A stretch of 64,000 bases of DNA from Phototrophicaceae bacterium (lineage in GTDB: Bacteria > Chloroflexota > Anaerolineae > Aggregatilineales > Phototrophicaceae): positions 207,096 to 271,095 of the forward strand of contig CBDCQL010000001.1 in the NCBI GenBank assembly GCA_965220615.1. The letters run 5' to 3'. Both the position numbers and the translations under genes were made by a program. Below, in pieces: positions 44,033-48,063 of this stretch (position 1 is its first letter; each line of letters starts with the position of its first letter). The notes below the pieces were generated by a model, which worked only from the letters and a program-made list of their open reading frames with translations, was not told the DNA's origin and ran no database searches.

Positions 44033-45112
44033 CTAGAGTTGCACATAGCTGTTCTCGGCCAGAATCAGCCGATGGGCGGCGGGTACGTGCTCGGCCGAGG
44101 TGACCTGCGAATAGTCCGCCAGCAGACTGGAATCGATGCGGCCCGGCATGTTACGGATGACGCAGTCCTTCATGACGATGCTGTCCTCAATCTCGCTGCC
44201 CTCGACGACCACGTTGTTGCCGATCGCCGTGTAGGGGCCGACGTAGCTGTTGCGAATGCATACGTTGTCGCCGATGATGACCGGCCCGCGAACCACGCTG
44301 TTGATGATCTGGCTGTCACGGCCGATGAGTACGCGGTGCGAGACCTCGGAGTCGCCACAGACCTGGTCGCGGTTGGTCGGCGGCGGTGTGTAGGGCAGTT
44401 CGCCCAGCAGCACCTGGTTGGCGAGGATGATGGACTCAGGCTTGCCGGCGTCGATCCACCAGCCCTGAAGGATGTAGGGCTGGACCTGCCGGCCCTGGCT
44501 GATGAGCCACCCGATGGCGTCGGTGATCTCCAGTTCGTTGCGCCAGGAAGGCTGGATGTTGCCGATGGCCTCGTAGATCGAAGGGCGGAAAAGATAGACG
44601 CCGGAGATGGCGAGGTTGGAAACCGGGTTTTGCGGCTTTTCCACCACGCGCCGGATCTGGCTGCAATTGCTGTCCAGCTCGGCAATGCCGAAGCGTTCAG
44701 GGTCCGGCACCTCGGTCAGGGCCACGGCGGCCTCGGCCCCGGAGTCGGGGAAGTTGGCCAGCAGGTCGGTGAGGCGGTCCTTGAAGACGTTATCGCCGAG
44801 GAACATGCAGAAGGGCTCGTCGCCGGTGAAGGGCTGCGCCAGGCTGGCGGCATGGGCCAGACCCCGTTGCACTTCCTGCACGATGTATTCCAGGCGTACG
44901 CCCAGCTGGCGGCCATCGCCCAGTTGCTTCGGAATGGGCGAGCCCAGACTGTTGACGACGATGCCGATGTCGACCAGGCCGGCCTCGCGCAGCAGGTCGA
45001 TGGCGTATTCGATGAGGGCCTTGTTGGCGACCGGCACCAGCGGTTTGGGCATGGTGAGGGTGACCGGGCGCAGGCGGGTCCCCTGACCCGCCGCGAGGAT
45101 GACCGCCTTCAT
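44033..45112 (-). CDS. Sugar-1-phosphate nucleotidyltransferase, long form with C-terminal left-handed beta-helix (glucose-1-P thymidylyl/uridylyltransferase-like)
   Basis: ORF 44033..45112. MKAVILAAGQGTRLRPVTLTMPKPLVPV. The C-terminal third shows hexapeptide repeats (IGDNVCIRNSYVGPYTAIGNNVVVEGSEIEDSIVM). Confidence 0.85.
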   Translation of the reverse strand: MKAVILAAGQGTRLRPVTLTMPKPLVPVANKALIEYAIDLLREAGLVDIGIVVNSLGSPIPKQLGDGRQLGVRLEYIVQEVQRGLAHAASLAQPFTGDEPFCMFLGDNVFKDRLTDLLANFPDSGAEAAVALTEVPDPERFGIAELDSNCSQIRRVVEKPQNPVSNLAISGVYLFRPSIYEAIGNIQPSWRNELEITDAIGWLISQGRQVQPYILQGWWIDAGKPESIILANQVLLGELPYTPPPTNRDQVCGDSEVSHRVLIGRDSQIINSVVRGPVIIGDNVCIRNSYVGPYTAIGNNVVVEGSEIEDSIVMKDCVIRNMPGRIDSSLLADYSQVTSAEHVPAAHRLILAENSYVQL

Positions 45113-45183
45113 GCGTCAGCGCCTCCCGAAAAGATGGCAGGACGGGAAATGGTACACGGGAACCATGCGGGCTGCAATCAGGT
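45087..45183 (-). repeat. Leader/5'-CDS repeat, copy 1 (functional copy feeding into the nucleotidyltransferase gene)
   Basis: The 42-nt block 45087-45128 matches 45529-45570 at 41 of 42 positions. The 26-nt block 45158-45183 is identical to 45607-45632. The sequence between the blocks is divergent. Confidence 0.85.
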
Positions 45184-45248
45184 TGCGCGCGCTGCAAGGC
45201 CAATGCGGTCCTGTCAGATTTGTGTCCGGGGACTGGTGAAGCGGCCGG

Positions 45249-45446
45249 TCAGGCCTGCTGGTCCTGATCCGTCCTTTTGCGAACCAGCGGTGGATACGGC
45301 TGGCTTACCCGTTCGCCCGGCACAAAGGGGGCGGACCGGGAGTAATTTTTGTCAGTGATGACTACAGATGAAACCGGGACGCCAGTGAACCTCACCTTGC
45401 CTACCGGGGGGTACTGCCGCACGTCAATTAACTCAGGCCCACTCAT
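45249..45446 (-). CDS. Small hypothetical protein A (65 aa), member of a duplicated pair
   Basis: ORF 45249..45446 with GGAGGA 5 nt upstream of the ATG. About 28 of 59 positions are identical to ORF B: MS.P......YPP.GKVR...VPVSSV.......Y....FVPG.ERVSQ..PP. Confidence 0.6.
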   Translation of the reverse strand: MSGPELIDVRQYPPVGKVRFTGVPVSSVVITDKNYSRSAPFVPGERVSQPYPPLVRKRTDQDQQA

Positions 45447-45528
45447 TCGTATCCTCCGGGATCCGGAATTCCGGCCTGCTTATCCACTGGAATCCCACTT
45501 CTTCTGATACTACAGCAACAAGGAATGC

Positions 45529-45632
45529 CCCGCCGCGAGGATGACCGCCTTCATACGTCAGCGCCTCCCGCGATGATGAACGATGCCTGCTCATGGCATG
45601 GAACGTGGGAACCATGCGGGCTGCAATCAGGT
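45529..45632 (-). repeat. Leader/5'-CDS repeat, copy 2 (stub: SD + MKAVILAAGHSLLL-stop)
   Basis: See copy 1. The nucleotidyltransferase start codon and first 26 nt of its CDS are duplicated here, but the frame terminates after 14 codons. Confidence 0.85.
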
Positions 45633-45715
45633 CGGGCGCGGTGCAACTTTCCTGAACAGCATGGCGATGAATGTGTCCGGAAGTGGTGATTTGGATTGAG
45701 CCAGGTCGTCTGCAA

Positions 45716-45895
45716 TCAGTCCTTGTTTCTGCGTGGCGGCCATGTTTGGCTCACCCGCTCCTTGCCAGGAACGAAGGATGAGGGTTTTGGGTAATCCCCC
45801 ATTTTGACCTTTACGGATGAGACCGGCACGGCGCCTGGTCTGACTTTGCCGGCCGGGGGATATGTCCAAAATTCAGGTTGCCTAGGCTCACTCAT
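45716..45895 (-). CDS. Small hypothetical protein B (59 aa), paralog of protein A
   Basis: This is the inner part of ORF 45716..45961. ATG 45895 (MSEPRQPEF) has GGAGGG 5 nt upstream, at the same position as in unit A. Confidence 0.6.
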   Translation of the reverse strand: MSEPRQPEFWTYPPAGKVRPGAVPVSSVKVKMGDYPKPSSFVPGKERVSQTWPPRRNKD

Positions 45896-46032
45896 TCGCT
45901 TCCCTCCGGTAGATTGATCGCAAGGCAATAACCACGGCTCTTGAAATTCAAAAATGTGCAATTCACTTGGAATCTTTCAACTCACCTTCTTCTAAAATAC
46001 TGTCAATATCTTGGATGAAACCAGCAAACATT

Positions 46033-46557
46033 TCATGATATTTCAGATCCGTTTCTATCGTTTCCGACATTCTTGCGGACTTCCAAAAGAAATTCTCCCA
46101 TCACTTTGAGTGATTCAATTGACTTGCCCGTCTTTTGCAGGTCGCCGACATCTTTGTTCTTCGCGGCAAATTGAACAAAACTATTGAAGGCCCGCACGAC
46201 ACTGTCAGAGCCAAACAAGGCCAACCTAAAACCAGCCTCTCTGTACTCAACTGAGGTAACGATCTCATGTGCAAACGCGTCCTTGGACATGTTTCTGATT
46301 CTGTTTCTTATGGGCCTGTATCGCTGTGCCTCATAGAACTTCTCATCTTTAGATAGGGCCAAGATATATGGTTCTATTATTTTCCTGTAAATCTCAAGGC
46401 GATCCTCACGCAATTTTGCTTCCAGGTCTCGAGTGCGTTTTGCACGACGTTGAGATTGTTCCAGATTTCTATTGATGAAATAGCCTGCTACCGCAACAAC
46501 AATTGGAGTGGCATAAGGAGCAAAGACATCAAGAGTCTCCCGAACAATTGGATCCAT
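46033..46557 (-). CDS. Orphan hypothetical protein with one N-terminal TM helix, strongly low-GC
   Basis: ORF 46033..46557. YATPIVVAVAGYFI is a TM helix, followed by a helical, Lys/Arg/Glu-rich domain. No family recognised. GC is visibly about 40 percent against about 65 percent in the flanks. Confidence 0.6.
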   Translation of the reverse strand: MDPIVRETLDVFAPYATPIVVAVAGYFINRNLEQSQRRAKRTRDLEAKLREDRLEIYRKIIEPYILALSKDEKFYEAQRYRPIRNRIRNMSKDAFAHEIVTSVEYREAGFRLALFGSDSVVRAFNSFVQFAAKNKDVGDLQKTGKSIESLKVMGEFLLEVRKNVGNDRNGSEIS

Positions 46558-46598
46558 GCTGTTCTCCCAATTGAATTAATGCTTGAAAGAAGCGGGTT

Positions 46599-47828
46599 TT
46601 AGTCCCGCGCGCGGCGCAGGGTGGCCGCGGCCAGGTCCTCAATGCCGTGGCGCAGGGGTTTGCCGCGCGTGGCCTGCGGCCCCTGCTGCGCCTGGTGCCA
46701 GATGTCGGCGGCAATCTCGAAGACGGCGTTGGGACGGGCCTGGGCGCGCGCGCGCTGCGAGCGTCGCTGCAGGCCTTCCGGCCCCTCCGCCAGCCAGGCG
46801 AGCAGCGTGTCGCCGATCTCGCGCGGGTCGGGCGTGAAGACGCCGACGCCGTGCTCGATGACCCAGTCGACGTTGCCGCTCTCCTGACCCGGGATGGCAT
46901 CGTAGAGCATGAGCGGGACGCCGGCGATACAGGCCTCGCTGATGGTGGCCGGCCCCGCCTTGGTGACGATGATGTCGGTCGCCGCCAGCACCACCGGTAT
47001 GTCGCGGCGGAAGCCATAGATGCGGGTCGGCTGGTTCCAGACGACCGACTGCAGCCGCTGGCGCAGGGTCGCGTTGCGGCCGGTGATGACCAGCAACTGG
47101 CACTGCGGCCGCCGTTCGTTGATGGCCAGCGCCGTGCGGTAGACCGGACCCATGCCGTCCACGCCACCGACGAGCAGCACGACGGGTTGATGCGGATCGA
47201 GCCCCAGCCGCTCCCGCGCGCTGGCCCGGTCGGTCAGGCCGTCGATGAAGTTCGGATGCACCGGCAGGCCCGTGAGGCGCAACTGGTCCGGCGTCATGCC
47301 GTTTTCCAGGCCGCGGGCATAGGCCGCCGCGGTGGGCACCAGCGTGCGCTCGGCGCGGCGCTCGTACCACATGTGGTGGGTGGAGACGAGGTCCGTCACG
47401 ACCACCACAAAGGAGGCGCGGCCCGGCAGGCTCTGCATGGCCTTCATGGTGGGGCGCGCCAAAGCCGAGTGCACGCAGACGATAACGTCCGCGGGGTGCT
47501 CCCGCAGCAGGCGCTTGAGGCCCAGTTCAAGGGTGTGAAAGATGGTGGTGGAGAGGATGCGGGCGCGCTGGCGGGTGTTGGAGAGCTTGTATCCGGCGCC
47601 CCAGGACTGCTTGCTGTTGTTCACCCACCAGGGGTAAATCTCCGGCAGGTACTTGAAGGGCGCCGGCGAGTAGTCGCGGAAGACGTCCACCAACTCGACA
47701 GCGACAGCTTCCGGCCCGGGCCGGCGATAAAGCGCGTCGCGGATGGCCTCGGCCGCGGCGCGGTGTCCGCCGCCGGTATCGGACATCAGGATCAGGATGC
47801 GTCTATTTTTGTCCGTCTGGAGCAACAT
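46599..47828 (-). CDS. MGDG-synthase-like / GT28 glycosyltransferase (diacylglycerol glycosyltransferase type)
   Basis: ORF 46599..47879. ATG 47828 gives MLLQTDKNRRILILMSDTGGGHRAAAEAIRDAL, the hallmark MGDG_synth N-terminus. The C-terminal part has VTKAGPATISEACIAGVPLML. Confidence 0.8.
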   Translation of the reverse strand: MLLQTDKNRRILILMSDTGGGHRAAAEAIRDALYRRPGPEAVAVELVDVFRDYSPAPFKYLPEIYPWWVNNSKQSWGAGYKLSNTRQRARILSTTIFHTLELGLKRLLREHPADVIVCVHSALARPTMKAMQSLPGRASFVVVVTDLVSTHHMWYERRAERTLVPTAAAYARGLENGMTPDQLRLTGLPVHPNFIDGLTDRASARERLGLDPHQPVVLLVGGVDGMGPVYRTALAINERRPQCQLLVITGRNATLRQRLQSVVWNQPTRIYGFRRDIPVVLAATDIIVTKAGPATISEACIAGVPLMLYDAIPGQESGNVDWVIEHGVGVFTPDPREIGDTLLAWLAEGPEGLQRRSQRARAQARPNAVFEIAADIWHQAQQGPQATRGKPLRHGIEDLAAATLRRARD

Positions 47829-47865
47829 GCCTCGTGTTTCCGCGCGTTTGCATCCCGGGCCGGGA

Positions 47866-48063
47866 TCACAGCGGCCCACGCAGGAGCCGTTTCGCGCGTT
47901 TGCCGAACTCCCTGCGCGTCAGCAAAACCCTTCGCTGGCAACCGCTGCAACGCAGACCGATATCCGCCCCGATGCGGTAGACGACCCAGATGTCGCTGCC
48001 ACAGGGATGTGGCTTGCGAAGCTGCACGCGGTCGTCGACCTGAACCTCCTGCACGTCGGCCAT
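47866..48063 (-). CDS. DUF951-family small protein
   Basis: ORF 47866..48063. VQLRKPHPCGSDIWVVYRIGADIGLRCSGCQRRVLLTRREF matches the DUF951 pattern (hPCG..W.v.R.GaDi.l.C..C). Confidence 0.75.
   Translation of the reverse strand: MADVQEVQVDDRVQLRKPHPCGSDIWVVYRIGADIGLRCSGCQRRVLLTRREFGKRAKRLLRGPL

Follow-up and report, generated by a model that had tools for sequence, protein, structure and literature searches.

How can two tandem copies of a bacterial sequence be nearly identical in their non-coding parts when the small proteins that they encode share only half of their residues? This question is raised by a locus of a Phototrophicaceae bacterium (Chloroflexota; contig CBDCQL010000001.1 of assembly GCA_965220615.1, positions 207,096 to 271,095), analysed here as a stretch of 64,000 nucleotides that we call the window. 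Two repeat units lie there on the minus strand (45087-45972), upstream of a gene encoding a nucleotidyltransferase of the rmlA_long type (NT). The first-pass annotation had presented them as a tandemly duplicated module, each unit with a small open reading frame (ORF) led by a Shine-Dalgarno sequence (SD), conserved blocks and the 5' end of NT, and had found it paradoxical that the ORFs diverged more than their flanks. Our comparison with 15 related loci (numbered with the prefix L) makes a different account likely: the window would hold two anciently diverged small genes, referred to as alpha (proximal to NT) and gamma (distal), that were stacked by illegitimate recombination within a hypervariable low-GC island.

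Two repeat units upstream of the nucleotidyltransferase gene

Both a repeat search and a MAFFT alignment of the units recovered the two direct repeats. Segments 45084-45136 and 45526-45578 are 91% identical and segments 45130-45197 and 45579-45646 are 78% identical, with stretches of 22-26 nt lacking any difference. In the alignment, the block ACCTGATTGCAGCCCGCATGGTTCCC is the same at 26/26 positions, and CGGGAGGCGCTGACG[C/T]ATGAAGGCGGTCATCCTCGCGGCGGG, that is, the SD of NT plus the first 26 nt of its coding sequence (CDS), at 41/42 (45087-45128 and 45529-45570); the 29-36 nt that separate these blocks are divergent. The distal unit ends in an NT stub reading MKAVILAAGHSLLL up to a stop codon (45510-45554). 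All of this agrees with the initial description, as do the small ORFs of 65 and 59 codons behind GGAGGA (proximal) and GGAGGG (distal). The distance of 5 nt between SD and ATG that had been given for each unit does not apply to the distal copy, where a 1-nt insertion with respect to L008 and L003 extends it to 6 nt.

A further element proposed as common to both units, an AT-richer upstream block (AGAAGAAG...GATTCCA), did not withstand scrutiny. Locally aligned, these upstream segments scored 16 at best, a value that 25% of dinucleotide shuffles also reached, and they differ in origin: the 3' tail of a proteasome-beta-like gene (Ntn) makes up the proximal segment, and the frameshifted 3' end of a 174-aa gene (X) the distal one. 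Since the similarity of the upstream segments is at chance level and their origins differ, the true homologous unit extends from the small-ORF SD to NT nucleotide 26.

Alpha and gamma belong to a new family of small proteins

The window alpha and gamma proteins share 29 invariant columns (50% identity), with a nonsynonymous divergence (dN) of 0.46, a synonymous divergence (dS) of ~1.9 and a dN/dS ratio (omega) of 0.25, which speaks for purifying and not for diversifying selection. Each has closer orthologues in other genomes, namely L001 (80%) and L007 unit 3 (85%) for alpha, at omega 0.3-0.4, and the second units of L007 (88%), L018 (82%) and L019 (81%) for gamma, at omega 0.18-0.38. The two copies are therefore not mutual closest relatives, and a dS of 1.9 contrasts with flanking blocks that agree at 26/26 and 41/42 positions. 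Judged by these distances, alpha and gamma diverged long ago, as paralogues or alleles, and do not form a recent duplicate pair; the label of tandem duplication is lost together with its paradox.

Selection on the small ORFs was consistent across the related loci. Pairwise omega values ranged from 0.1 to 0.4, with a bootstrap fraction at omega ≥1 that was mostly <0.01; pairs made up of orphans only, that is, of ORFs that are not the first of their array, yielded 0.11-0.14 with a fraction ≤0.002. At least 19 copies were found, all of them intact and preceded by GGAGG. By these signatures (intact frames, an SD in all copies and dN/dS significantly <1), the small ORFs are real protein-coding genes and are under purifying selection, even as orphans. 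In L010 (3842-4011), an internal deletion has reduced Ntn to ~29 codons from its N-terminal and 36 from its C-terminal end, and the overlapping small ORF is intact, a further sign of maintenance independent of the neighbour.

The first-pass annotation had not recognised the family. A profile search collected 16 small proteins of 61-69 aa, none of which has a name; every one comes from a metagenome-assembled genome of Anaerolineae/Anaerolineaceae. A hidden Markov model (HMM) search of 1.84 billion representatives returned three real matches and one spurious repeat protein, with no member outside the small-protein family, and the only match of a metagenome scan was a locus already in the related set. 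Pfam, NCBIfam, PHROGs and PADLOC gave no meaningful match for either small protein, the 174-aa protein or the Ntn-like proteins. On the strength of these searches, the family is new and restricted to the Anaerolineae clade. Its conserved core reads GKVR-TG-PVS-V...Y...FVPG(K)ERVSQPWPP; the N-terminal two thirds are far more variable than the C-terminal FVPGERVSQPWPP motif, and the very C-termini vary (QQA, KKQS, NKD, GKG). The AlphaFold2 (AF2) model has a predicted local distance difference test (pLDDT) score of 58 and no secondary structure, and the proteins are accordingly predicted to be disordered.

The conserved blocks as a probable copy of the nucleotidyltransferase start region

The NT protein matches TIGR01208 (rmlA_long) with an E value of 8e-121, above the curated cut-off, and PF00483 with 1.5e-51, and its gene is syntenic in all related loci. 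The region of the 41/42 block, comprising SD and start, is nearly invariant at NT in L001, L004, L005, L007, L008, L009, L018 and L019. An alignment of the NT upstream region from nine loci further uncovered a (near-)invariant GATTGC-N-...-GTACCAT, the SD GGGAGGCGCTGAC and the first nine NT codons. Here a −35-like TTGCNG (TTGC(A/G/C)G) is followed by 17 nt and TACCAT, at a spacing that is fixed among the aligned loci. This candidate promoter matches the Escherichia coli consensus at ~7/12 positions, and a promoter scan makes no call there; the 26-nt block is probably the NT promoter or operator region. When NT was compared with that of nearer relatives (L001, L005, L007-L009), dS over its first 40 codons was 0.03-0.10, against 0.17-0.34 gene-wide.

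The repeated blocks are thus nearly identical because the regulatory and start region of NT hardly varies among relatives, and the conserved "non-coding" blocks of the distal unit are, as far as sequence comparison tells, a captured copy of the promoter-like region, ribosome binding site and first 26 bases of NT. Variation is greatest in the 5' untranslated region (5'UTR) that separates the blocks, which occurs as two haplotypes among the nine loci: the distal copy in the window is of the L001/L009/L019 type (...GTTCATCATCGCGGGAGG...GACGTATG), and the 5'UTR of the real NT of the L005/L018 type. The distal copy shows decay, with TACCAT changed to TTCCAT in the window and the matching copy partly deleted in L008 and L007. 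The earlier suggestion that the conserved blocks are functional regulatory elements therefore stands for NT's own upstream block, SD and 5' CDS, and finds no support for the distal copy, which combines a mutated −10-like box and deletions in relatives with the lack of an RNA family or of covariation. A scan of the window at Rfam gathering thresholds yielded only a tRNA, and RNAalifold on the NT upstream alignment reported 0 compensatory pairs and a positive covariation term.

Other features of this region deserve mention. Between the NT SD (GGGAGG) and codons 5-8 (GGTCATCCTCGCG), a hairpin can form that is invariant in the window (45087-45130, minus strand), L001, L004, L007-L009, L018 and L019. 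This hairpin and the low 5' dS suggest a translation-initiation structure or some other constraint on the 5' end. GC-rich palindromes flank or overlap the −35-like box (window ~45184-45205, minus strand), with GTTGC-N7-GCAAC just upstream in the window and in relatives, and a perfect palindrome, ATTGC-CGCGCGC-GCAAT, occurs in L003 (7345-7365); these palindromes may be an operator for an NT regulator.

Related loci carry small-ORF arrays in a hypervariable island

At every related locus fetched, a small ORF sits between a gene for a monogalactosyldiacylglycerol (MGDG)-synthase-like glycosyltransferase and NT, usually preceded by Ntn and in some loci by the low-GC gene X, and at least 12 related genomes carry one to three small ORFs at this position. 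With Greek letters for the small-ORF subfamilies, the order before NT is Ntn-alpha in L001, Ntn-beta-gamma-alpha in L007, Ntn-epsilon-gamma-alpha in L019, Ntn-beta'-gamma in L018, Ntn-delta-beta' in L005, X-gamma'-beta' in L008 and X-gamma-alpha in the window. Gamma directly adjoins the NT upstream block (P) and NT in L018, as does gamma' in L004.

The arrays carry traces of their assembly. Every orphan small ORF has a 19-75-codon 3' remnant of Ntn upstream (window, L005, L007, L008, L017, L018 and L019). In the window, this tail (45433-45534) aligns with residues 233-268 of the 268-aa L007 protein at 67% identity (tblastn E 9e-11), and the sequence between the stub and the proximal ORF is thus an Ntn remnant, not an "AT-rich leader". 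L001 and the proximal unit run colinear between Ntn codon ~235 and the end of NT, at 92% nucleotide identity.

The island itself (~45250-46600, in a window of 66% GC) differs sharply from the backbone genes on either side. Island GC is 40-59%, against 64-70% in the flanking genes. Backbone dS with respect to the window ranges from 0.02 to 0.58 across relatives. L005 and the window have an NT dS of 0.023 and MGDG-synthase-like genes of 98.2% nucleotide identity, and their island content is entirely different. In the X-gamma haplotype common to the window and L008, the small ORF is 58% identical in amino acids, whereas its flanks reach ~85-90%. Ntn alleles are saturated at synonymous sites (dS >1.6; dN 0.2-0.36; omega ~0.1) even where the species' backbone dS is ~0.2. 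The shared backbone of L005 and the saturation of Ntn between close species indicate that the contrast seen in the two units is, on these comparisons, one of a conserved backbone with a hyperdivergent island and not of odd selection on a duplication. The allelic lineages of the island would then be far older than the species.

Junctions between array units

In the window, the NT-derived sequence stops at ...ATCCTCGCGGCGGG and the Ntn tail starts at CGG codons (TGCGGCGGCCAA in L007). The heptamer GCGGCGG is common to NT codons 7-9 (CTCGCGGCGGG) and to these Ntn codons, and we interpret it as the probable breakpoint of an illegitimate recombination. The junction recurs in L008, as ATCCTCGCGGCGG(A/G)GCATTCCTT(A/G)TTGCTGTA with the join ATCCTCGCGGCGGAGCATTCCTTATTGCTGTA, that is, in a different species (backbone dS ~0.35-0.40), where ~60 nt are missing from the trapped 5'UTR and the start of NT. 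L019 carries a variant in which NT nucleotide 17 is joined to a longer, 51-codon Ntn tail, and its distal and proximal P/5'UTR/stub copies show two differences in ~92 nt. Other junctions were read in L007 (units 1 to 2, at CAACCTG|CGGCGG, and units 2 to 3) and in L005; CAACCTG is common to the NT upstream block and the Ntn tail. There are at least four junction types overall, and those of L005, L018 and L007 (units 1 to 2) lack the repeated block. No integrase or recombinase was found among the called neighbours within ~5 kb at any locus examined, nor did the repeat search detect an inverted-repeat, attC-like element at the unit boundaries in the window. Heterogeneous microhomology joins, with no nearby recombinase and no attC-like repeats, point to illegitimate rather than site-specific recombination.

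The window junction also lies within a chimeric 60-aa ORF (45433-45615, minus strand), which starts at an ATG inside the distal 26-nt block (ATGGTTCCC), reads the trapped 5'UTR and stub in a different frame and finishes as the Ntn tail. No SD precedes it, and its expression is improbable.

A proposed history of sequential displacement and its alternatives

These observations can be assembled into a history. Relatives show the ancestral module: Ntn overlapping a 59-69-codon small ORF (ATGAGTGGGCCTGA), the NT upstream region and NT. An L001-like Ntn-alpha-P-NT locus would have received DNA carrying ...gamma-P-NT (5' end). One end of the incoming DNA would have recombined in the conserved flank, with the MGDG-synthase-like gene as the likely homologous anchor, and the other end would have joined at GCGGCGG, linking incoming NT nucleotide ~26 to resident Ntn codon ~233. 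Such a join would have deleted most of Ntn, sparing a 33-codon tail with the SD for alpha; the scar trapped in the process would comprise the upstream block of NT together with its 5'UTR, its SD and the initial 26 nt. A second replacement would have put the unrelated low-GC gene X (174 aa, itself frameshifted) upstream of gamma. The mechanism was thus probably sequential displacement, most simply by homology-facilitated illegitimate recombination. The apparent excess of coding over non-coding divergence would then reflect ancient island alleles arranged as a mosaic within a conserved backbone, where a clean join at a microhomology caught a housekeeping gene's 5' end.

Several points weigh against this history. 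Unequal exchange between sister chromatids at GCGGCGG yields an identical junction, and neither the direction of the event nor the donor can be fixed. If the junction is common to L008 by descent (backbone dS ~0.35), the distal blocks are less eroded than neutral decay would leave them, and gene conversion, a recent haplotype transfer or some function would be required to account for their preservation. The few differences between the L019 copies likewise hint at conversion, and the putative promoter assignment of the 26-nt block comes from conservation. A cognate effector-immunity relation is disfavoured in two ways: divergence of Ntn and of the adjacent small ORF is uncorrelated (Mantel r −0.01, p 0.5, n=8), and unrelated upstream genes, Ntn or X, are paired with the same small-ORF subfamilies.

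The main rival is an in-situ tandem duplication, in which unequal crossing-over between sister chromosomes at GCGGCGG would have duplicated everything from the Ntn tail up to NT nucleotide 26, one small ORF would later have been swapped by allelic recombination, and gene conversion would preserve the likeness of the promoter and stub blocks. Such an exchange yields precisely this junction topology, and the near-identity of the L019 copies fits conversion or a recent event. We nevertheless regard this scenario as unlikely: synonymous sites are saturated between the copies (dS 1.9), for both of which far closer orthologues exist in other genomes (80-88% amino acid identity, against 50%); the distal 5'UTR in the window is the haplotype of another lineage and not a copy of the proximal one; gamma and gamma' adjoin P-NT in L018 and L004, as the donor arrangement requires; and the later allelic replacement that the duplication still needs renders it less parsimonious. 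A chimera of two strain haplotypes created during metagenome assembly could be suspected at a locus that varies between strains (window and L005) and is hence prone to such errors, but the 7 nt shared at the junction are too short for a join in a k-mer graph, the same junction was assembled independently from another species (L008) and a variant of it from L019, and multi-unit arrays occur in six independent assemblies, which leaves this explanation with a minimal probability.

The first-pass annotation had itself offered three explanations for the unequal divergence. Repeated insertion of cassettes at one target captured the repeated stacking, and arrays of small, mostly promoterless ORFs do build up at one locus in many genomes; a specific site is what the data contradict. 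An integron-like or att-mediated process, with block and stub as the recombination site, has next to no likelihood given at least four junction positions, the lack of a recombinase or attC-like repeat reported above and the absence of the block from three of the junctions. A cis-acting RNA (riboswitch, leader or attenuator) maintained in both copies, which would regulate NT and, distally, the proximal small ORF, would be in line with the strong conservation of the blocks across species, with the invariant SD hairpin and with the reduced dS at the 5' end of NT. It is very unlikely in view of the Rfam and RNAalifold results, of a 5'UTR that varies most precisely between the blocks and of a distal copy that is partly deleted in L008 and L007 and mutated in its −10 in the window. 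Lastly, positive selection that drives the small ORFs to diverge faster than their flanks could appeal to their variable N-terminal two thirds and to the 58% identity of the small ORF between the X-gamma haplotypes of the window and L008. With omega between 0.1 and 0.4 for all pairs (pairwise estimates from few sequences) and dS saturated between subfamilies, we give it a very slim chance; the pattern is in keeping with recombination having shuffled old allelic lineages.

The proteasome-beta-like gene and gene X

We turn next to the gene that usually precedes the small ORFs. In relatives, Ntn encodes a protein of 262-269 aa that starts with MTICVSVKTRDGIVLGTDS; full-length homologues with the same ending occur in L001, L004, L005, L007, L009, L011, L018 and L019. 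Its last codons (...FRIPEDTNEWA and stop) overlap the start of the small ORF, the SD of which lies inside the Ntn CDS, an arrangement that suggests translational coupling. The Ntn family had 148 members in our search, all hypothetical and without a Pfam model. A profile search against PDB sequences gave only N-terminal matches to beta subunits at E ~0.6, but the AF2 model (pLDDT 89) retrieved Anbu and 20S beta subunits from the PDB with Foldseek (E ~3e-8, probability 1.0), the N-terminal Met-Thr is nearly invariant and the C-terminus is conserved. On this structural prediction, Ntn has a proteasome beta/Anbu-like fold with an N-terminal Thr and is a predicted hydrolase. Distant Ntn homologues (45-48% identity; L013-L015) have no adjoining small ORF, which makes the pairing specific to this clade.

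The Ntn alleles have a GC content of 46-52% in genomes of 64-70% (the eight loci with full-length homologues). Together with the saturated dS, this variation makes the uncharacterised proteasome homologue extremely polymorphic, in a manner that looks balanced. Within the Ntn tail, the 19-nt GCTGTAATATCAGAAGAAG is identical across L001, L007 and L009-L012 (e.g. L001 5931-5949), although the rest of Ntn is synonymous-saturated; this segment may be a recombination hotspot, be homogenised or hold a signal that serves the small ORF.

In the window, L003, L008 and L017, an unrelated gene X of 40-44% GC replaces Ntn. X carries a single predicted N-terminal hydrophobic helix; its family comprises five database proteins. 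The orthologues of L008 and L003 have 220 and 202 aa, respectively, whereas a 1-nt insertion at ~46057 stops the window protein prematurely at 174 aa, with a remnant frame that continues to a TGA at 45965-45963. X of L008 keeps the stop/start overlap with the small ORF (CAATGA), which the window X has lost. The latter could be a pseudogene or a sequencing error.

Comparison with known systems

The closest precedents are the immunity arrays of Vibrio cholerae's type VI secretion system (T6SS), for which sequential displacement by homology-facilitated illegitimate recombination was put forward; the C-terminal displacement of Rhs proteins and the orphan cdiA-CT/cdiI of contact-dependent inhibition (CDI) are cited in the same work (PMC5361080). 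As in those arrays, a large gene with a small overlapping or adjacent gene is followed here by stacked units of a 3' fragment and an intact small gene. Ntn 3' fragments precede the orphans, which are intact and closer to copies in other strains than to their neighbours, and the island between conserved genes differs greatly in content between close relatives (window and L005). The differences are equally clear. No toxin, delivery domain or secretion system was detected here (Pfam, PADLOC and PHROG on the large gene); the tails that were kept are the conserved and not the variable portion of the large gene; co-variation between large and small genes is absent (Mantel r ~0 in a small sample of eight loci); an unrelated gene can take the place of the large one with the small-ORF family unchanged; and one junction caught the 5' end of a downstream housekeeping gene. 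A polymorphic toxin-immunity system was considered and rejected, given a proteasome-beta-like large gene with a conserved C-terminus, no toxin or delivery match and no co-variation at those eight loci.

Homology-facilitated illegitimate recombination itself is described for Acinetobacter, Streptococcus pneumoniae and Pseudomonas stutzeri in PMC3240628 and in references in PMC5361080. It resembles the events proposed here in pairing one side in the conserved backbone (MGDG-synthase-like gene or NT) with a 7-nt microhomology join on the other, and in inserting DNA while partly deleting the resident sequence; at this locus, these steps are read from sequence only. Integron arrays are similar in presenting short, mostly promoterless and strain-variable ORFs at one chromosomal position, and unlike them this locus has no detected integrase or attI/attC, its junctions are heterogeneous and all cassettes encode one protein family.

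In Actinobacteria, genes for proteasome subunits have beside them the gene for Pup, a small protein of ~64 aa that is disordered. The parallel lies in a 59-69-aa protein, predicted to be disordered, whose gene adjoins and overlaps one with a proteasome-beta fold. The small ORF here lies downstream and not upstream, however, and persists where the proteasome-like gene is deleted. A Pup-like modifier was also rejected as a candidate: the C-termini are variable and without a conserved GGQ/GGE, and no Dop/PafA or alpha-subunit genes were found in the neighbourhoods.

Fuchs, Alva and Lupas (2021; PMC8665760) reported 22 novel proteasome homologue families without informative genomic context. Ntn, which may be one of the 22, resembles them in its proteasome-beta/Anbu-like fold, its N-terminal Met-Thr and its lack of a Pfam model. 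Unlike them, it has in this clade a conserved partner small ORF and the context of a hypervariable island. The locus therefore links a new small-protein family to an uncharacterised proteasome-beta-like family that previously lacked informative genomic context, and documents displacement-type arrays outside secretion-linked toxin systems, in uncultivated Anaerolineae.

What the small proteins do is a matter for tentative proposals. We consider it possible, if doubtful, that the variable products of the upstream genes have them as partners, be it as inhibitor, antidote or substrate. That Ntn (or X) and the overlapping disordered protein form an undescribed two-gene conflict module (toxin-antidote, protease-inhibitor or defence) under balancing or frequency-dependent selection seems rather improbable to us. 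If it were so, the stacked orphans would be a retained repertoire of antidotes or inhibitors, and one of many orphan families of proteasome homologues would gain its first functional context. Were the pair a conflict or regulatory module, the arrays would also constitute natural "swap" experiments for partner specificity.

Features of the locus

Coordinates of the island and its flanking genes are collected in Table 1.

Table 1. Features of the NT locus in the window, in order of position.
Feature	Position	Strand	Remarks
NT gene, intact, 359 aa, rmlA_long	44033..45112	minus	Right-hand backbone gene of the island; TIGR01208, PF00483, synteny
Proximal SD GGGAGG and first 26 nt of NT CDS	45087..45128	minus	Original of the 41/42 block; functional copy
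Proximal 26-nt block ACCTGATTGCAGCCCGCATGGTTCCC	45158..45183	minus	−35-like TTGCAG, 17-nt spacer, TACCAT
Proximal small ORF, 65 aa, alpha subfamily, orphan	45249..45446	minus	SD GGAGGA; identical to database protein P0001
Ntn 3' remnant, ~33 codons, ...GGAFLVAVVSEEVGFQWISRPEFRIPEDTNEWA and stop	45433..45534	minus	tblastn; stop overlaps alpha start (ATGAGTGGGCCTGA)
Distal NT SD and 26-nt 5' stub (putative scar of donor NT)	45510..45570	minus	Stub ORF MKAVILAAGHSLLL and stop, 45510-45554
Junction microhomology GCGGCGG	45529..45535	minus	Visible in the sequence itself
Distal copy of the 26-nt block	45607..45632	minus	Followed by −10-like TTCCAT, not TACCAT
Distal small ORF, 59 aa, gamma subfamily	45716..45895	minus	SD GGAGGG; HMM score 93.7, E 1e-27
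Low-GC (44%) orphan gene X	45963..46557	minus	Annotated ORF of 174 aa, 46033-46557; in the position of the Ntn gene
MGDG-synthase-like glycosyltransferase	46599..47879	minus	Left-hand backbone gene of the island; PF06925, E 3.5e-21

The interval between the small ORF and NT can also hold an additional gene. In Phototrophicaceae relatives, a gene of the PhyH family (phytanoyl-CoA dioxygenase-like) is found there (L003 6496-7332, with equivalents in L010-L012), and in L003 remnants of the GATTGC...ATGGTA block lie on either side of it.

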